A stretch of 43,922 nt of DNA from a virus. Its lineage: Duplodnaviria; Heunggongvirae; Uroviricota; Caudoviricetes. The stretch covers positions 1-43,922 of the IMG/VR virus record IMGVR_UViG_3300045988_002593, one strand, 5' to 3'. The position numbers and the translations under genes were made by a program. Below are positions 1-43,922 of this stretch, piece after piece. Position 1 is the stretch's first letter; each line of letters opens with the position of its first letter. The notes below the pieces were generated by a model that was not told where the DNA came from, ran no database searches, and saw only the letters and a program-made list of their open reading frames with translations.

Positions 1-119
1 ATTTTTTTTATCTATTTTCTGTGATGACTAGTTGACTATTATCCTCGACCCTATTATATTTACTTCATCGACAACGAGAACGGAGTAGAGAGAAATGGGC
101 AACGTATCGACGATAGAAA
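1..119. repeat. Terminal overlap copy, identical to 43804-43922 (circular closure or terminal redundancy)
   Basis: Bases 1-119 match 43804-43922 base for base, including promoter 32-60 and the first 25 nt of the gene at 95. Confidence 0.9.
32..60 (+). promoter_or_regulatory. Sigma70-like promoter for the early operon (TTGACT-17-TATATT)
   Basis: -35 TTGACT at 32-37, 17-bp spacer, -10 TATATT at 55-60; about 35 nt upstream of the ATG at 95, which has a GGAG-containing RBS. Confidence 0.5.
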
Positions 120-1926: not shown

Positions 1927-1998
1927 TTGACGTCTGAATAGCCTGCTAGTATAGTTAAAACGCGTCATACACTAATTTAACGAACAGAGAGAGCAAAT

Positions 1999-7203: not shown

Positions 7204-7230
7204 AAGGCCCCATTAAGGGGCCTTAGTTTT
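7204..7230. terminator. Bidirectional intrinsic terminator
   Basis: AAGGCCCC/GGGGCCTT stem with ATTAA loop, T-run on + and A-run upstream; sits between convergent genes. Confidence 0.65.
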
Positions 7231-7433
7231 CAACGGAATCTTGTGTTTAAATCCTGCTCGTGGACGACCTTCAGAACAGTGTCATAATCCCCGTATCTTC
7301 CAGGTTCAAATACATCTAATGCCTTGTAAGCAGACATTGCGTCAGGGAAAACCTGCAGAACCTTTTTAACACGGCACAAGTCACCGTCGAACTCTTCATC
7401 GAACTCTTGAACTACTTCGCAAATTGCATACAT
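7230..7433 (-). CDS. Hypothetical acidic protein
   Basis: ORF track; RBS AGGAGG upstream of the start on the minus strand. Confidence 0.55.
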   Translation of the reverse strand: MYAICEVVQEFDEEFDGDLCRVKKVLQVFPDAMSAYKALDVFEPGRYGDYDTVLKVVHEQDLNTRFR

Positions 7434-7460
7434 TTTTCACCTCCTGCTTAAGTTAACTGA

Positions 7461-7489
7461 ATAGTACCCTATTATATTGGGGTGTGCAA
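7461..7489 (-). promoter_or_regulatory. Promoter, TTGCAC-17-TACTATTCA class
   Basis: Minus-strand -35 TTGCAC (7484-7489), 17-bp spacer containing TATAAT, -10 TACTAT (7461-7466); drives 7230-7433. Confidence 0.5.
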
Positions 7490-7555
7490 ACTATTTATTT
7501 ACTTATTCCAGTTATTCCGCTCAATTGTAAATGTTGTAATAAACTATTCGAATAG

Positions 7556-7584
7556 TTGACTTTTCACTAAAAATATGATAAGCT
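7556..7584 (+). promoter_or_regulatory. Promoter with extended -10 (TTGACT-17-TAAGCT) preceding conserved element A
   Basis: -35 TTGACT, TG at -15/-14, -10 TAAGCT; identical architecture at 39399-39427; -35 overlaps the 14-bp palindrome ACTATTCGAATAGT (7543-7556). Confidence 0.45.
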
Positions 7585-7590
7585 CCACCT

Positions 7591-7791
7591 GAGCTTGTGA
7601 AGTATGAACAAGCGACCGCGGCGCGGGCAGGTAACGGAGCGGGACGTAAGTCCTGAGTGTAGTTACGCTGACGCGTTCGGAAGGGCCATACTCTATTGCT
7701 TGTGTAAAAAGTAACAGGTTTACTTAGATTACGCCGTTTCTATGTTTAAATGATAAGGACTAGCGCCCTGCTTTAAGGCAGGGCTTTACTT
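7591..7791 (+). ncRNA. Candidate structured leader/ncRNA, copy A (conserved core about 7591-7698)
   Basis: About 118 nt conserved with 39424-39541; compensatory stem GGAC-GUAA-GUCC here versus GUGC-GUCA-GCAC in copy B; ends at an intrinsic terminator. Confidence 0.3.
7765..7791 (+). terminator. Intrinsic terminator between element A and the spanin genes
   Basis: GCCCTGC/GCAGGGC stem, TTTAAG loop, then TTTACTT. Confidence 0.5.
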
Positions 7792-8195: not shown

Positions 8196-8304
8196 CGACG
8201 CTGACGAGGATTTAGCTATCGACGTTCAGAACGCTGAATGCGTACGGCAGCTGCGGCTGAAAGTGTTCATGTTGCAGGATTACGTGAGGAATATTCTGGA
8301 ATAG
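8041..8304 (+). CDS. Putative o-spanin (Rz1-like lipoprotein), overlapping the i-spanin gene
   Basis: Signal peptide with lipobox LSAC, Pro-rich mature region, starts inside the i-spanin ORF in a different frame. Confidence 0.5.
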   Translation: MKSLSTLKLLVAACALSTLSACSSSPAPSQTPIPSPDTTMMQPPCKLAPPSSDADEDLAIDVQNAECVRQLRLKVFMLQDYVRNILE

Positions 8305-14561: not shown

Positions 14562-14585
14562 AAGGCCCCTTTCGGGGCCTTTTTC
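14562..14585. terminator. Bidirectional intrinsic terminator
   Basis: AAGGCCCC/GGGGCCTT stem with TTTC loop, T-tracts on both strands; separates convergent tail and cassette transcripts. Confidence 0.65.
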
Positions 14586-16985: not shown

Positions 16986-17027
16986 AACATAACTCCTGAT
17001 TTGAGATAACATCGTTGGTGTAAGTGA

Positions 17028-17056
17028 ATAGTACGCTATTATATCAGGGTGTGCAA
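17028..17056 (-). promoter_or_regulatory. Promoter, TTGCAC-17-TACTATTCA class, for the minus-strand cassette
   Basis: Minus-strand -35 TTGCAC (17051-17056), 17-bp spacer containing TATAAT, -10 TACTAT (17028-17033). Confidence 0.5.
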
Positions 17057-17163
17057 GTAGTATGTTAGAATAATTTTGCGCCTAGTGTCGCACACGAAAA
17101 GCGGGTGGTTCCCGTCTGGCGCATTTCCTTTAACCAGTAACCTCTTAACCAAAGGATTAAAGA

Positions 17164-22555: not shown

Positions 22556-25113
22556 TCCTGCACTACACGCGAAACGCTGAAGGCGCTTTCGACCGTACAA
22601 AACACGTCGGGATGCCGATGGAGTTTGTCGTTAACCGTATTCCCTACGGCGTGCCTGTGCGCGTCTATCTCGGTGAGATTGGCGATGATACAGATGTAAC
22701 AGACGACTTCAATGCGCTCAAAGACGAGGACGCCGTGTACCACATTATCGAGGGTGCAGGCGGTGGTATCGGCGACGCTATCGGTAGTGTATTCAGTTTC
22801 ATCCTTAAGCCAATTGCCAAATTGTTCGGGCTAAACACAGCAGCTAACGCTAATTATTCCGCTACCAACAATCAGGCTACGTCGCCTAACAACAGTCTTA
22901 CTGACCGCTCGAACAAGCCACGACCTTATGAACGTTCTTATGACATCTGCGGGACAGTGCAGACTATACCCAATGACCTGATGCAGACGTATAAGGTGTT
23001 TAACGCCACGGGGGCGCTTATTGAATATGCGTACTATGACGCCGGTCGAGGGTATCTGCATATTGAGGAAGACGGTGTAACTGAGGCAGATACCCGAATC
23101 AGCGAGATAACTGGCTCGTCGGTGACGGTGTATTCTCCTTACACTTCGCTGAATAACACCAGCACACCACAATTGCATATCGGCGACCCTATAGACCAGA
23201 AATTGTACGTTACATTTAAAAACGCCGATGTCGATGGCGCTGTTCTTCCCGCCCCTAATGATATCGCTATAGACGTGCAGGACTACACTGTCCAGCGGCA
23301 GGGAACAACCGGCGTTGTAGTAGGCGATGACGCTGGTTTCGATGAGTTTTTGGCGGTCGGGGACCTGGCATACTTCGATAACGTATATGCAGATACAACC
23401 CCAGGGTCTTTGGGTAATGAGGTTAACCTGGACGGGAGGTACACGGTTCTTTCTGTTAGTGAAACGACCCTTATTGTGGACGTCAGTACAAATCAATCAA
23501 TATGGAACCAGCTAGGAACATCTGTATGGTTTATAGGTGAAGAGGGCAACCATCTTATAGGCCCGGCGGATACTTACGCGGCTTCCCTCTCTGAATGGGC
23601 GTACATCACCCGCGGAACCGTCGACCGTGTTGTAGCCAATGTGGCTGCCAGCAACGGCATGTACAAATACAACGGCGACTATAACCGCGCTTCAGTGACA
23701 GTCGAACTGCAATACCAGATGGTAGATGAATTGAAACAGCCTGTAGGTGACATATTTACCGTACGAGGAACCGTAACAGGCCGGAACACGGATTACACAG
23801 GGATTACTCTTTACGGAAGTTTACCAACTGCTTCCAGATTCCGCGCCCGTATGCGTCGTGTTTCGGACACCGATAAAGATTTTGAAGGTACTGTTAGCGA
23901 CGAGGTTACTTTCACTAATCTGTATGGGCAGTCGCTGGACACAACCCCCCACTACGGCAACCGTACTACCGTACACTGCGCCCGTAAACAAACCCCACGT
24001 GCAGCCGAGGTGTCCGAACCGGAACTGCGCATGATTGCAACCGAGATGTGCTACAAATACTTAGGTAACGGCGTATTCGATACAGTAATGACACCGAACA
24101 CTCAGGCCGTGCAGTCGCTAATCAGGCTGGCGCGTGACCCTGTGGTGGGTAATCTGGAACTGACAACGGCAAATATGGACAAGTTACTTGCCGTGCAGGA
24201 AGAAATTGAGTCGTATTTTGACAGTGAATTAGCCGGGCAGTTCTGCTACACATTCGACGACTACGACACAACCATGCAAGACATCGTTCAGACCATCGCG
24301 GAAGCCGTGTTTTGTACGGCATACCGTAAAGGTGCTGATATTATGCTGCGATTCGACCGTCCTGTTGCGGGGCCTGAGATGGTTTTCACCCACCGCAGCA
24401 AAACGACCGGTACGGAGAAATGGACGCGCACGTTCAACGATTCGACAACCTACGATAGCCTGTCGTTCTCGTACATTGACCCGGATACAAACGTACAGGA
24501 GACGATTTATATCCCGGAAGAACTCGGCGCGAACACCGAGGAGTACGAATCGAAGGGTGTACGTAACTATCAGCAAGCGTACTGGCTGGCGTGGCGTCGC
24601 TACCAGCGCAACACGTTAAGTAAAGTTGTCGTAGAGTTCGAAGCTACCGAAGAAGGCGCTCTCGCTACTCCCGGCGGCGTAATCAGTGTGGTTAAAGGCT
24701 CGCGTATCGCGCCGCAGGATGGTTATGTTGTTGCCGTCAATGGCCTTACGCTGACGCTGTCTCAGCCTGTTACGTTTACTCCTGGTGATGACCATTCCAT
24801 CATTCTTAAGAAGCGCGACGGCTCTGTGCAGAGTATTTCTGTTATCAAAGGAAGCCACGACCGCGAAGTGATTATGCTCTCCGCGCCGGAGGAGGCAATC
24901 TACACGGGGAATAGTGCGCTAAAAACTGAGTTTTCATTCGGCAACGAAGCAAGGCATAATGCTCAGAAGATAGTTGTTTCTTCAATCGACCCCGGCGACG
25001 ACCGCACGGTCAAGATTACGGGCTACAACTATGATGACGGATTCTATAAATACGACGGCGTCGCGCCATACGGCAGCGGTTTCTCCGACGGATTCAGCAA
25101 TGGTTTTAATTAA
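22546..25113 (+). CDS. Tail tip / central fibre host specificity protein (J-like)
   Basis: 855-aa ORF after the K-like gene; start uncertain (TTG at 22546 or ATG at 22612). Confidence 0.6.
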   Translation: MAIILHYTRNAEGAFDRTKHVGMPMEFVVNRIPYGVPVRVYLGEIGDDTDVTDDFNALKDEDAVYHIIEGAGGGIGDAIGSVFSFILKPIAKLFGLNTAANANYSATNNQATSPNNSLTDRSNKPRPYERSYDICGTVQTIPNDLMQTYKVFNATGALIEYAYYDAGRGYLHIEEDGVTEADTRISEITGSSVTVYSPYTSLNNTSTPQLHIGDPIDQKLYVTFKNADVDGAVLPAPNDIAIDVQDYTVQRQGTTGVVVGDDAGFDEFLAVGDLAYFDNVYADTTPGSLGNEVNLDGRYTVLSVSETTLIVDVSTNQSIWNQLGTSVWFIGEEGNHLIGPADTYAASLSEWAYITRGTVDRVVANVAASNGMYKYNGDYNRASVTVELQYQMVDELKQPVGDIFTVRGTVTGRNTDYTGITLYGSLPTASRFRARMRRVSDTDKDFEGTVSDEVTFTNLYGQSLDTTPHYGNRTTVHCARKQTPRAAEVSEPELRMIATEMCYKYLGNGVFDTVMTPNTQAVQSLIRLARDPVVGNLELTTANMDKLLAVQEEIESYFDSELAGQFCYTFDDYDTTMQDIVQTIAEAVFCTAYRKGADIMLRFDRPVAGPEMVFTHRSKTTGTEKWTRTFNDSTTYDSLSFSYIDPDTNVQETIYIPEELGANTEEYESKGVRNYQQAYWLAWRRYQRNTLSKVVVEFEATEEGALATPGGVISVVKGSRIAPQDGYVVAVNGLTLTLSQPVTFTPGDDHSIILKKRDGSVQSISVIKGSHDREVIMLSAPEEAIYTGNSALKTEFSFGNEARHNAQKIVVSSIDPGDDRTVKITGYNYDDGFYKYDGVAPYGSGFSDGFSNGFN

Positions 25114-27115: not shown

Positions 27116-27140
27116 AAGGCCCCAAACGGGGCCTTTTCTC
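27116..27140. terminator. Bidirectional intrinsic terminator
   Basis: AAGGCCCC/GGGGCCTT stem with AAAC loop and T-tract; between convergent modules. Confidence 0.6.
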
Positions 27141-29437: not shown

Positions 29438-29722
29438 CTAACTATAATAGTTCGCTATTAGGTCGTCAACCTGTTTAAACGAACCGACGACAAAAACATT
29501 TGCACCGCGTTTACGCATCCGCTCATGCTCACGTAACTGGTGTGGGTCTGGCTTCGTATTTTCGTCTTTCTTAACCTCGACGAACCAGACGATGCCGCCG
29601 GGGAGAATTACCAGCAGGTCAGGAGCACCGGAGCGCCCCTCGTAGGAAAGTTTACGAACGAGGCCACCAATGGCCTCGAATCGCTCTTTTGCGTATTTCT
29701 GAATCTTGCCTTCCGGGGTCAT
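29438..29722 (-). CDS. VRR-NUC domain nuclease
   Basis: Motif GAPDLLVIL...WFVEVKK matches the PD-(D/E)XK VRR-NUC signature. Confidence 0.65.
   Translation of the reverse strand: MTPEGKIQKYAKERFEAIGGLVRKLSYEGRSGAPDLLVILPGGIVWFVEVKKDENTKPDPHQLREHERMRKRGANVFVVGSFKQVDDLIANYYS
29441..29469 (-). promoter_or_regulatory. Promoter, TTGACR-17-TATAGT class
   Basis: Minus-strand -35 TTGACG (29464-29469), 17-bp spacer, -10 TATAGT (29441-29446); lies within the 3' end of the VRR-NUC gene. Confidence 0.5.
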
Positions 29723-32246: not shown

Positions 32247-32260
32247 TATTTTCGACCCTT

Positions 32261-32286
32261 AGTAAAAAGGCCCAATGAAGGGCCTT
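32261..32286 (-). terminator. Intrinsic terminator downstream of 32306-32935
   Basis: AAGGCCC/GGGCCTT stem with a 6-nt loop; T-tract on the minus strand. Confidence 0.55.
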
Positions 32287-32305
32287 AGTTAAACAGATTC
32301 AGATA

Positions 32306-32990: not shown

Positions 32991-33019
32991 ACTATAATAG
33001 CTAACTATTCAGGTGTCAA
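32991..33019 (-). promoter_or_regulatory. Promoter, TTGACA-17-TATAGT class
   Basis: Minus-strand -35 TTGACA (33014-33019), spacer with GAATAGT, -10 TATAGT (32991-32996); leader contains hairpin CCGGGAGCTGCCCGG (32964-32978). Confidence 0.55.
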
Positions 33020-35792: not shown

Positions 35793-35820
35793 ATCCGCCC
35801 CTCTCGTTTGGTATGGGCTA

Positions 35821-35849
35821 ACTATAATAGCGAACTATTCACATGTCAA
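35821..35849 (-). promoter_or_regulatory. Promoter, TTGACA-17-TATAGT class, in the divergent control region
   Basis: Minus-strand -35 TTGACA (35844-35849), spacer with GAATAGT, -10 TATAGT (35821-35826); overlaps the first of two 16-bp direct repeats. Confidence 0.55.
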
Positions 35850-35913
35850 TGGGCTTTTCTAAAATAATTAATATGGTACTATTCACATATCAACTGACTA
35901 AGGAGTAATTGAC

Positions 35914-36129
35914 ATGCAACCATCTGAACTAGGTATCCGTGTAGAACAACGCCGTAAAGAACTCGGCATCTCCCAGCGCCGTTTGGCGGCCCTGACCGGC
36001 GTTTCCCAGGGCGCGATTAACCAACTGGCACTTGGAGTAACTCAGGACGTCCGCCCGGCAACGCTGTTCAAACTGGCGGAAGTTCTGGAAGTAGACGCCA
36101 AGTGGCTGGCGTTAGGTGAAGGGGCTTAA
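35914..36129 (+). CDS. Cro/CI-type HTH transcriptional regulator
   Basis: Motif LGISQRRLAALTGVSQGAINQL; lone + strand gene in a minus-strand block; RBS AAGGAG. Confidence 0.65.
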   Translation: MQPSELGIRVEQRRKELGISQRRLAALTGVSQGAINQLALGVTQDVRPATLFKLAEVLEVDAKWLALGEGA

Positions 36130-36144
36130 AGCCCCTTTCTTTTT
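36121..36144 (+). terminator. Intrinsic terminator after the HTH gene
   Basis: GGGGC/GCCCC stem with TTAAA loop followed by TTTCTTTTT. Confidence 0.6.
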
Positions 36145-38899: not shown

Positions 38900-39112
38900 T
38901 TACTTAACGCCCGCAATCCACGCACGCTCCGAAGCGTAGAAACGACACTTACTTAAAGCCTCGATTGGCATCTTAATAATGCGTGTCGGTTCCAACAAAT
39001 GATTAGGCTTACATATTTCCGCATAGAATCCGCTGTCAGTAATTTCCGACGCAAACTTAAACCAGTATTTAACTTTACAGTTTTCAAAGTAACAACCCAT
39101 ACGCCCAATCAT
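38900..39112 (-). CDS. Hypothetical protein
   Basis: ORF track; start overlaps the AlpA-like gene stop. Confidence 0.45.
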   Translation of the reverse strand: MIGRMGCYFENCKVKYWFKFASEITDSGFYAEICKPNHLLEPTRIIKMPIEALSKCRFYASERAWIAGVK

Positions 39113-39291
39113 TTCACGTTCTCCTTAATCCATGCTTCAACTTTATTACGGTCAAATGTTCCTGGTAAACGGCGACCCATAACCTTAATACAGCAATCAG
39201 GGAATTTACCACTGCGCAACCAGTTATTAATTGTTTGACGTGTCACCCCGATACGTTCAGCCACTTCATTCTGTGTCATGTAATGCTGCAT
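39109..39291 (-). CDS. AlpA/excisionase-like HTH DNA-binding protein
   Basis: Motif MTQNEVAERIGVTRQTINNWLRSGKFP; start moved to ATG 39291 with an AGGAG RBS. Confidence 0.6.
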   Translation of the reverse strand: MQHYMTQNEVAERIGVTRQTINNWLRSGKFPDCCIKVMGRRLPGTFDRNKVEAWIKENVK

Positions 39292-39322
39292 TTTTATATC
39301 TCCTGTTTGTTTGGTGAAAACG

Positions 39323-39351
39323 AGTATAGGATAGCGTGAATGTAAAAGCAA
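39323..39351 (-). promoter_or_regulatory. Candidate promoter for the AlpA-like operon (TTGCTT-17-TATACT)
   Basis: Minus-strand -35 TTGCTT (39346-39351), 17-bp spacer, -10 TATACT (39323-39328), about 30 nt upstream of the start. Confidence 0.4.
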
Positions 39352-39398
39352 CCAAAACACCACACAAAGTTACTAATATACAAAAGATGCTAATGGTA

Positions 39399-39427
39399 TT
39401 GACTTTTACTAAGAAATGTGCTAAGCT
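39399..39427 (+). promoter_or_regulatory. Promoter with extended -10 (TTGACT-17-TAAGCT) preceding conserved element B
   Basis: Same architecture as 7556-7584: -35 TTGACT, TG at -15/-14, -10 TAAGCT. Confidence 0.45.
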
Positions 39428-39433
39428 CCACCT

Positions 39434-39665
39434 GAGCTTGTGAAGTATGAACAAGCGACCGCGGTGCGGCAGGAAACGGAGCGGTGCGTCAGCACTGAGT
39501 GTAGTGTCGCTGCCTGCATTCGGAAGGGCCATAATCTATTGTAAATCCCGTCTAAATAACCCAAGTCACTAATAATTAAAAGTTTCTATAGTTGCCGTAA
39601 GCAAGGTAGAGAGTACTTCACTCCGCTGGGGTGGGCTAAAGCCCACCCGCTGCGTTGCGTACTCT
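39434..39665 (+). ncRNA. Candidate structured leader/ncRNA, copy B (conserved core about 39434-39541)
   Basis: Conserved with 7581-7698; compensatory stem GUGC-GUCA-GCAC; divergent 3' part ends in an 8-bp GC-rich hairpin (39629-39648). Confidence 0.3.
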
Positions 39666-39707: not shown

Positions 39708-39736
39708 TTGCACACCCCAACATAATAGGATACTAT
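39708..39736 (+). promoter_or_regulatory. Promoter, TTGCAC-17-TACTATTCA class, for the second early operon
   Basis: -35 TTGCAC, 17-bp spacer containing CATAAT, -10 TACTAT, 34 nt upstream of the ATG at 39771. Confidence 0.5.
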
Positions 39737-39770
39737 TCACTTATCGGAACGAGACATAAGGAATTTAGAA

Positions 39771-40515: not shown

Positions 40516-40685
40516 GAGAAGCATTCGAACGGTGGGCCATCGTCGAGGGTCTGCCGGTTAATAAGGGTTCGAAGAAAGAGTACCTGAACGTTAAGACGCG
40601 TCTCGCGTGGCGGGCGTGGAAAGCTGGTGTGCAAGCAAGGGCGGGTATAACAGGTGGTGTAACAGGTCAAAAGGTTACTAATTGA
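40512..40685 (+). CDS. Hypothetical early protein
   Basis: ORF track, start at ATG 40512; followed by two hairpins (about 40697-40760). Confidence 0.45.
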   Translation: MREAFERWAIVEGLPVNKGSKKEYLNVKTRLAWRAWKAGVQARAGITGGVTGQKVTN

Positions 40686-40821: not shown

Positions 40822-40850
40822 TTGCACACTGGGATAGAATAGTCTACTAT
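40822..40850 (+). promoter_or_regulatory. Promoter, TTGCAC-17-TACTATTCA class
   Basis: -35 TTGCAC, 17-bp spacer with TAGAAT, -10 TACTAT, 30 nt upstream of the ATG at 40881 (RBS GAGGAGAGG). Confidence 0.5.
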
Positions 40851-40880
40851 TCATTTACACAAACGAGAGGAGAGGCAGAG

Positions 40881-43780: not shown

Positions 43781-43812
43781 ATCCCGGCCCTGACCCAGCC
43801 GGGATTTTTTTT
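43781..43812 (+). terminator. Strong intrinsic terminator after the lysis cassette
   Basis: ATCCCGGC/GCCGGGAT stem with 9-nt loop followed by eight T; the T-tract runs into the terminal overlap. Confidence 0.7.
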
Positions 43813-43922
43813 ATCTATTTTCTGTGATGACTAGTTGACTATTATCCTCGACCCTATTATATTTACTTCATCGACAACGAGAACGGAGTAGAGAGAAATG
43901 GGCAACGTATCGACGATAGAAA
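43804..43922. repeat. Terminal overlap copy, identical to 1-119
   Basis: Exact repeat of window bases 1-119. Confidence 0.9.

Follow-up and report, generated by a model that had tools for sequence, protein, structure and literature searches.

The window analysed here, the whole 43,922-nucleotide stretch of IMG/VR virus record IMGVR_UViG_3300045988_002593, carries a set of predicted promoters that share an inverted repeat, AATAG-N4-CTATT, together with a single gene of the helix–turn–helix (HTH) family HTH_3, which encodes a 71-residue protein resembling phage Cro. Judged from its sequence, the window is a complete genome of the genus Kagunavirus, subfamily Guernseyvirinae, that of a virulent siphovirus of E. 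coli, and shows 92–97% identity to the Escherichia phages vB_EcoS-22664BS2, fEg-Eco06, SHAK7858 and Golestan (most of the first 25 kb queried). Bases 1–119 are an exact 119-bp direct repeat of 43804–43922, leaving 43,803 bp of unique genome and a redundant end; terminal redundancy or circular permutation of the assembly accounts for the repeat, which also doubles the promoter at 32–60.

Promoters were predicted from sequence, and dyad positions are given relative to a +1 taken 7 nt downstream of the −10 hexamer. The initial annotation had described seven promoters in two classes, all of which are present at the positions and with the sequences it gave. Class I promoters follow TTGCAC-N17-TACTAT(TCA) (7461–7489 and 17028–17056 on the minus strand, 39708–39736 and 40822–40850 on the plus strand), and class II promoters follow TTGACR-N17-TATAGT (29441–29469, 32991–33019 and 35821–35849, all on the minus strand). 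If one mismatch at most is allowed, the class I pattern has four matches against 0.19 expected and the class II pattern six against 0.64. A fourth class II promoter, absent from the initial annotation, lies at 1927–1955 on the plus strand (TTGACG-N17-TATAGT, TTGACGTCTGAATAGCCTGCTAGTATAGT), and the class II scan with one mismatch also picks up a promoter at 32–60 on the plus strand (TTGACT-N17-TATATT).

The repeated unit on these promoters is the 14-bp inverted repeat AATAG-N4-CTATT, extended by its flanks to 16 bp as KAATAG-N4-CTATTM, that is (G/T)AATAG-N4-CTATT(C/A). All seven exact copies sit on the seven promoters, and copies with one mismatch occur on four further promoters, including that at 1927–1955 and the candidate promoter of the Cro-like gene. 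These sites, referred to as operators below, and the Cro-like gene are as follows, with strands being those of the promoters and the gene.

7459–7474, GAATAGTACCCTATTA: operator on class I promoter 7461–7489 (minus strand), centred at −12.5 and overlapping the −10 hexamer TACTAT; the promoter drives a lone 67-residue gene at 7230–7433 (minus strand).
17026–17041, GAATAGTACGCTATTA: operator on class I promoter 17028–17056 (minus strand), centred at −12.5; the promoter drives the operon for superinfection immunity, exonuclease, polynucleotide kinase and deoxynucleoside monophosphate (dNMP) kinase.
39723–39738, TAATAGGATACTATTC: operator on class I promoter 39708–39736 (plus strand), centred at −12.5; the promoter drives small genes from 39771 on.
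40837–40852, GAATAGTCTACTATTC: operator on class I promoter 40822–40850 (plus strand), centred at −12.5 and fully symmetric over 16 bp; this promoter and that at 39708 serve two operons, both rightward, that comprise small genes and lysis genes.
29445–29460, TAATAGTTCGCTATTA: operator on class II promoter 29441–29469 (minus strand), centred at −18.5 in the spacer and touching the −10 hexamer TATAGT; the promoter drives the helicase/toprim operon.
32995–33010, TAATAGCTAACTATTC: operator on class II promoter 32991–33019 (minus strand), centred at −18.5; the promoter drives a DUF2815 gene and the DNA polymerase gene.
35825–35840, TAATAGCGAACTATTC: operator O1, exact, on class II promoter 35821–35849 (minus strand), centred at −18.5 and covering part of the −10 side of this leftward promoter.
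35869–35884, TAATATGGTACTATTC: operator O2, one mismatch, downstream of the −10 in the candidate promoter of the Cro-like gene, at about +1 to +12.
35914–36129 (plus strand): Cro-like HTH_3 gene, 71 residues, monocistronic and followed by a terminator-like hairpin at 36118–36138.
1936–1951, GAATAGCCTGCTAGTA: near-operator, one mismatch, on class II promoter 1927–1955 (plus strand), upstream of the terminase genes.
7550–7565, GAATAGTTGACTTTTC: near-operator, one mismatch, on the promoter of a duplicated element (element A, below), centred at about −33.5 on the −35 hexamer.
26–41, GACTAGTTGACTATTA: near-operator, one mismatch, on promoter 32–60 (plus strand), centred at about −33.5; present again at 43829–43844 in the redundant end.

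The perfect operators include those of the three replication operons, which are read from 29441, 32991 and 35821. Genome-wide, the exact repeat occurs seven times against 0.04 expected, a count reached in none of 100 shuffled sequences, and with up to one mismatch it occurs 13 times against 1.28 expected. A de novo search for palindromes of the form 5-Nk-5 ranks AATAG-N4-CTATT first in this genome (seven copies), and likewise in fEg-Eco06 (eight copies) and Salmonella phage Jersey (four copies). The initial annotation, which had proposed comparing the motif with shuffled expectation and searching for it de novo, had been built around the heptamer GAATAGT; this too exceeds chance (12 copies against 4.65 expected), but the unit that repeats is the 14–16-bp palindrome. 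The heptamer noted at 8299 is present but has no partner half-site, as is the case at 24909, and fits the chance background, and the ‘TATAAT-like hexamer’ described within the class I spacer exists but is just the repeat’s left arm together with flanking sequence (ATAATAG). The suggestion that these promoters are conserved beyond the needs of sigma-70 is borne out by a distinct element of two-fold symmetry that overlies host-type promoters, with invariant half-sites and a central 4 bp that drifts.

The dyad takes a different position in each group of promoters. In the four class I promoters it is centred at −12.5, and its right arm forms part of TACTAT; in class II, including 1927–1955, the centre is at −18.5, in the spacer and touching TATAGT; in the two TTGACT promoters (32–60 and 7556–7584) it is at −33.5, where the N4 is the TTGA of the −35 hexamer; and in the candidate promoter of the Cro-like gene it lies near +5, in the start region. 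Operators thus overlap the −35 hexamer, spacer or −10 hexamer of predicted promoters, including the regulator’s own. Because it takes several registers (−12.5, −18.5, −33.5 and near +5), the operator fits steric repression and does not fit a factor obliged to dock on RNA polymerase. The left arm in class II spans −25 to −21, a region for which sigma-70 holoenzyme has no sequence requirement.

Agreement with the sigma-70 consensus extends to 10–11 of 12 positions in class II promoters but only 7 of 12 in class I promoters, in which TTGCAC and TACTAT are nevertheless invariant. On inspection, spacing and sequence rule out reading class I as sigma-32, sigma-54, RpoS or MotA-box promoters. Placing the class I −10 at the internal TATAAT-like hexamer leaves no conserved −35 and ignores the invariant TTGCAC 17 bp from TACTAT.

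The repeat was followed through a comparative set of 80 viral contigs, each with a gene for a relative of the Cro-like protein, approximately 50 of them of Kagunavirus or Jerseyvirus type, and in all of these approximately 50 AATAG-N4-CTATT is the top palindrome. Promoters sampled from these loci (67 unique class I and 105 unique class II sequences) have half-sites of 1.9–2.0 bits (1.89 in class II), values that are inflated, as the sites were chosen at no more than one mismatch to the motif; the class II N4 carries 0.45 bits, with 23 different tetramers among the 105 sequences. A motif-independent comparison, in which MAFFT was used to align the 125 nt preceding the Cro-like gene (36 unique sequences), shows zero variation in all ten half-site columns of O1, with variation in three of the four N4 columns and in the 3–4 nt between the operator and the −35 hexamer; most of the variation outside the operators lies in the gene-proximal part of the leftward promoter. 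O2 keeps its imperfect sequence unchanged in all Kagunavirus relatives examined.

As read from these alignments, fixed half-sites with a drifting N4 are the pattern that would be expected of a dimeric DNA-binding protein, rather than of descent from a duplicated promoter cassette. The latter explanation, in which the promoters are paralogous copies spread by duplication or recombination and need no dedicated regulator, would account for a similarity that reaches past the palindrome to include both promoter hexamers (−35 and −10) and a ACACCAACGAGAGG-like leader motif, and for a repeat finder grouping them as repeat families of 30–48 nt. It is nevertheless improbable, given that in orthologous promoters the half-sites stay fixed while the N4 and the −35-proximal spacer vary freely, that the register of the palindrome differs among classes I, II and III, that the class II left arm (−25 to −21) has no role in sigma-70 recognition, and that the homologues of other phages also have flanking palindromes with this geometry.

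The protein most likely to bind the repeat is the phage’s own 71-residue homologue of 434 Cro, and the shared element is probably a Cro-type operator, bound by a dimer of this protein and placed on sigma-70 promoters. The protein matches Pfam HTH_3 (3.9e-13), and a profile of its family searched against the PDB finds phage 434 Cro as best match (E 2.7e-12, residues 6–68 of 71), followed by the 434 repressor. Its gene is preceded by a 121-bp region, between the leftward class II promoter (35821–35849) and the rightward start, that contains both O1 and O2. The candidate promoter of the gene (TTCACA-N16-TAAAAT, 35838–35865) is bracketed by the two: read on the other strand, O1 overlaps its −35 hexamer (TTCACA, 35838–35843), and O2 (AATATGGTACTATT) lies directly downstream of its −10 hexamer.

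Remote homologues from unrelated contigs show the half-site tracking the recognition helix, in neighbouring palindromes that share the 5-4-5 geometry. In five uncultivated temperate phages (IMG/VR contigs L055, L059, L069, L070 and L082), proteins 40–43% identical to the Cro-like protein share its helix start GVSQG.I.Q (GVSQG(L/T/A)I(G/S/T)Q, against GVSQGAINQ in this phage), and ATTAG-N4-CTAAT or AATAG-N4-CTAAT, palindromes differing from AATAG-N4-CTATT by one base per half-site, lies directly upstream of the gene, within 80 bp. In L056 the helix is GVSTMAIGD and the upstream palindrome TAAAG-N4-CTTTA; in L073 they are GLSDSMLHK and TGTAG-N4-CTACA. For 6 of 17 homologues in bacterial genomes, an exact 5-4-5 palindrome lies no more than 70 bp upstream, where approximately 1.2 would be expected by our own estimate; none of the 18 loci scanned has an SQG-type helix, so that this result supports only a general link between the family and 5-4-5 palindromes.

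Several observations weigh against this assignment. The Cro-like proteins of Kagunavirus and Jerseyvirus are only 48% identical and have different helices (VSQGAINQ and VSQSLITH), yet the operator is the same, whereas a second small regulator, a 56-residue protein of the HTH_17 family (39109–39279, minus strand), is 80% identical between the two genera. All motif-bearing lineages examined carry HTH_17 except L022, of which 20 kb of a 34-kb contig was seen. Kagunavirus intergenic regions are highly conserved overall, which limits the argument from conservation, and class I promoters might need an activator, so that repression would perhaps be an incomplete story.

The HTH_17 protein, an excisionase/MerR-like winged helix that the initial annotation had named as an ‘AlpA-like’ candidate beside the Cro-like protein, is accordingly the rival binder to be weighed, as an early regulator of the seven promoters. 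It matches Pfam HTH_17 (1.6e-8), is 80–86% identical between Kagunavirus and Jerseyvirus, which share the operator, and is missing from the SE1-like phages, which also lack the motif; in RNA sequencing (RNA-seq) of phage K1B4, its orthologue K1B4_008 is one of four ‘early’ genes (PMC12645636). Against it, L022 has no HTH_17 gene at the usual locus or elsewhere in the 20 kb seen of its 34-kb contig but has six exact operators, and L007 and L025 carry a 70%-identical allele whose recognition helix is changed from VTRQTINN to VSTMTLNR while the motif is unchanged. The AlphaFold model of the protein (predicted local distance difference test score 84.8) is a bare winged helix with no dimerization element, whose nearest folds, all weak matches (E 0.03–0.5), are BldC, Xis-type excisionases, the RacA DNA-binding domain and gpNu1. 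Several proteins with folds of this type bind direct repeats as monomers. The HTH_17 gene itself has no palindrome. Binding of the palindrome by HTH_17 is therefore unlikely, and of the two named candidates the Cro-like protein is clearly favoured.

In the Kagunavirus contig L022 (12559–13144, minus strand), the HTH_17 gene and its 70-residue neighbour are swapped for unrelated open reading frames (ORFs) of 149 and 47 residues, a natural exchange of the module with which the leftward early operon starts. The 47-residue ORF is Cys-rich and zinc-finger-like; neither ORF has an HTH match or a recognizable DNA-binding domain.

The SE1-like Guernseyvirinae, which like the Jerseyviruses have Salmonella hosts, do not distinguish the two binders: the AATAG-N4-CTATT motif was not found in them and HTH_17 is missing, and their Cro-like protein, 41% identical, also has a different helix (GVTQSAISH). 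A scan of vB_SenS_SE1 for an equivalent palindrome found nothing recurring at 5-Nk-5; only loose features are present, TTGACTAAT and ACTAAT...ATTAGT at variable spacing, from which no operator is definable. Phage SS3e (L068), considered as a divergent Cro allele, is merely an N-terminally truncated match to the Jersey-type protein and is uninformative. In the K1B4 time course, the Cro-like orthologue (gene 004) falls into a broad ‘middle’ class; sampled between 5 and 120 min for a latent period of 30 min, and assigning 42 of 57 genes to ‘middle’, this time course is too coarse to separate the promoter classes (PMC12645636).

The same SE1-like phages bear on a further alternative, that an E. 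coli or Salmonella transcription factor reads the palindrome and couples the promoters to host physiology. The motif is common to Kagunaviruses and Jerseyviruses, whose hosts are related enterobacteria, and the site at 27–40 (ACTAGTTGACTATT) may resemble the core of the trp operator, ACTAGTTAACTAGT. A host factor is nonetheless very unlikely, as the SE1-like phages of the same Salmonella hosts lack the motif, which instead tracks the lineage of the phage Cro-like protein. We know of no enterobacterial regulator with an AATAG-N4-CTATT consensus.

The seven-copy motif has been published before, as the PHIRE-predicted ‘phage-specific promoters’ of fBC-Eco01, where seven promoters with the consensus tgAATAGTa-ccTATTat-T were ascribed to a phage RNA polymerase (PMC9825357), and of Golestan, again with seven (PMC7203180). 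Both papers credit the motif to a polymerase that is not encoded, and both are silent on dyad symmetry, an operator and the Cro-like protein. The literature searched holds no other mention of the motif than this PHIRE output in two genome papers, and none of the dyad symmetry, an operator role or the Cro-like protein; the CM001 and BASEL papers are silent on regulation. In the GenBank record of Jersey, the orthologous promoters are annotated merely as sigma-70-like.

Gene content largely refutes the idea of a phage polymerase. The close relative fEg-Eco06 (approximately 93% nucleotide identity) has 76 annotated genes, among which there is no RNA polymerase, integrase or CI repressor, its large ORFs being all otherwise assigned; the large ORFs of the window all correspond to structural or replication genes. 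The motif is moreover palindromic and embedded in −35 and −10 hexamers of sigma-70 type. Since no phage polymerase gene exists, the published label of phage-RNA-polymerase promoters is unsupported.

A loading site for an antiterminator of the Q or AlpA type would be compatible with the location of Q and AlpA binding elements between −35 and −10 (PMC9371919) and with a terminator (7765–7784) downstream of the element A promoter. Proteins of this type use an asymmetric single element, a sigma-dependent pause and a protein domain that binds the RNA exit channel; in P. aeruginosa, a single AlpA molecule, with its HTH at residues ~128–142, occupies one 6-bp element at a fixed position beside such a pause (PMC9371919). 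Here the site is symmetric and occurs in three registers, and HTH_17 has only 56 residues and a Xis/BldC-like fold. Either form of this alternative, polymerase promoter or antiterminator site, is hardly credible.

Under the favoured assignment to the Cro-like protein, its dimer would target a two-fold symmetric operator, such as GAATAGTTAGCTATTC, laid over host sigma-70 promoters, each monomer reading one outer half-site of 5–6 bp and leaving the central 4 bp uncontacted, as with 434 Cro. Because the operator covers the −10, the spacer touching the −10, or the −35, bound protein should exclude RNA polymerase; steric repression is suggested by the overlap of the dyad with core promoter elements in several registers. 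As it accumulates, the Cro-like protein would turn down the replication and early/middle operons, and through O1 and O2 it would regulate its own gene negatively. Physical binding, repression as the sign of regulation, and its timing are all inferred.

A wider and more tentative proposal is that this one protein runs the whole transcription programme of a CI-less virulent phage through a ladder of affinities and an ordered shut-off of operons, which is possible though doubtful. The ladder would comprise perfect operators on seven early/middle promoters and conserved imperfect ones on the protein’s own promoter (O2), the terminase promoter (1927), the promoter at 32–60 and that of element A (head operon), with the weakly bound promoters of structural genes left active last. 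Graded shut-off from perfect and one-mismatch sites would be an attractive reading of this distribution.

The closest known system is that of phage 434, whose operators are 14 bp long, with contacted outer bases and an uncontacted centre. The likeness extends to a detectably homologous 71-residue Cro, to an operator of 14 bp with two-fold symmetry, in which the outer bases are conserved and the central 4 bp free, as in OR1–3 and OL1–3, and to operators that overlap core elements of promoters (predicted ones, in this phage) and bracket the regulator’s own. The half-site is AATAG here and ACAA(G/T) in 434. In contrast to the two tripartite clusters of 434, single operators lie on at least seven promoters across 44 kb, with weaker ones on four more, and unlike in the lambdoid CI/Cro switch there is no CI partner, integrase or lysogeny module. 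A classical switch layout is seen in L055, where three sites are clustered beside a divergent HTH gene; loci of the L055 type form no genome-wide set, unlike that found here.

Phage P1 offers a parallel for the distribution of sites, in that one repressor, C1, acts on operators at individual promoters around the genome and controls many transcription units, as is proposed here. P1 differs in being temperate, and its C1 is large and unrelated, with asymmetric operators of 17 bp.

The genus is described as strictly lytic, with no lysogeny genes (CI, integrase or other) reported for it (PMC7203180, PMC9825357) and none present in the annotated close relative. What is less usual in this phage is the CI-less virulent setting and the presence of single operators over essentially every recognizable early/middle promoter; otherwise the pair is of a familiar Cro/operator kind, a standard HTH repressor and its operator, tidy rather than surprising to a specialist. 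Guernseyvirinae of the genera Kagunavirus and Jerseyvirus rank among the most frequently isolated therapeutic and biocontrol phages of E. coli and Salmonella and serve as small chassis for phage engineering. A defined operator, a candidate repressor and 11–12 predicted targets provide a testable model of an early-to-late switch, portable repressible promoters for engineering and a correction of published annotations.

The initial annotation had drawn attention to a perfect 14-bp palindrome at 7543–7556, ACTATTCGAATAGT, whose final base is the first T of the −35 hexamer TTGACT. The palindrome is real, but it consists of two half-sites back to back (ACTATTC|GAATAGT), of which only the right one belongs to an operator-like site: it pairs with CTTTT (7560–7564) to form the one-mismatch operator 7551–7564 over the −35, a layout repeated at 27–40, whereas the left half-site has no acceptable partner (TGTAA-TAAA-CTATT). 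The palindrome is kept in fEg-Eco06, K1H, ZCEC5 and Jerseyvirus ER14, which says little on its own because the whole stretch is at least 94% identical in these phages.

Upstream of the palindrome, positions 7500–7545 (plus strand) hold an array of half-site-like sequences, with TTATTCC twice in direct repeat (7503–7518); relatives have an inverted GGAATAA there, and this phage has TGTAATAA. The array is kept in K1H, ZCEC5, fEg-Eco06 and Jerseyvirus ER14 and could be a site for a second protein, for example the HTH_17 winged helix.

Element A occurs in two copies on the plus strand, 7556–7700 and 39399–39545, the second of which lacks the palindrome. Each copy has a promoter, TTGACT-N17-TAAGCT with a TG extension, followed by approximately 140 nt that are 82–89% identical between copies; in copy 1, which lies ahead of the head genes, the hexamers are at 7556–7561 and 7579–7584 and the TG at 7575–7576, and the terminator at 7765–7784 follows the copy, ahead of the head operon. 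The copies differ by compensatory-looking hairpin changes (GGGACGTAAGTCC in one, GGTGCGTCAGCAC in the other). Element A is kept in Kagunaviruses and some Jerseyviruses, its fold has a z-score of −2.1, and it matches no Rfam family. An 88-residue ORF (39266–39532, minus strand) overlapping copy 2 is probably spurious.

At 40644–40685 (plus strand), tandem GGT(A/G)TAACAGGT repeats precede a degenerate operator, AAAAGGTTACTAAT, with two mismatches (compare L001, 45390–45430). At the equivalent position, at least eight relatives (for example fEg-Eco06, L006, L009 and L022) have a perfect AATAGGTTACTATT; this phage has therefore lost one operator.

Most operator-bearing promoters are followed by short leaders that share (T)TACACCAAC or CCAAACGAGAGG, running into the ribosome-binding site, for example at 35795–35815 (minus strand), 40855–40872 (plus strand) and 16998–17020 (minus strand). 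This leader motif is found with both promoter classes and also in Jersey, and may be a signal for translation or RNA stability, or plain inherited sequence.

An int-alpA RNA motif (Rfam) lies at 17075–17139 on the plus strand (36.6 bits; gathering score 35.8), between class I promoter 17028–17056 (minus strand) and the first tail gene (17164). The tail-operon transcript apparently carries this motif at its 5′ end, and a possible extended −10, TGTTAGAAT (17063–17071), lies upstream of the motif.

The label of T7 Gp2-like ‘RNA polymerase inhibitor’ on gene g016 of fEg-Eco06 is unsupported by Pfam and PDB sequence searches, which likewise give no Gp2-like match for the window ORF at 1238–1435. 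A contig in a Bacteroidota genome assembly, L087 (Taishania pollutisoli scaffold 22), has a gene for exactly the Cro-like protein of Salmonella phage Jersey, probably because phage DNA contaminated the assembly. At 14562–14581, 27116–27137 and 32260–32290, where convergent operons meet, there are GC-rich hairpins of near-identical sequence (AAGGCCCC....GGGGCCTT), which are probably shared bidirectional terminators.

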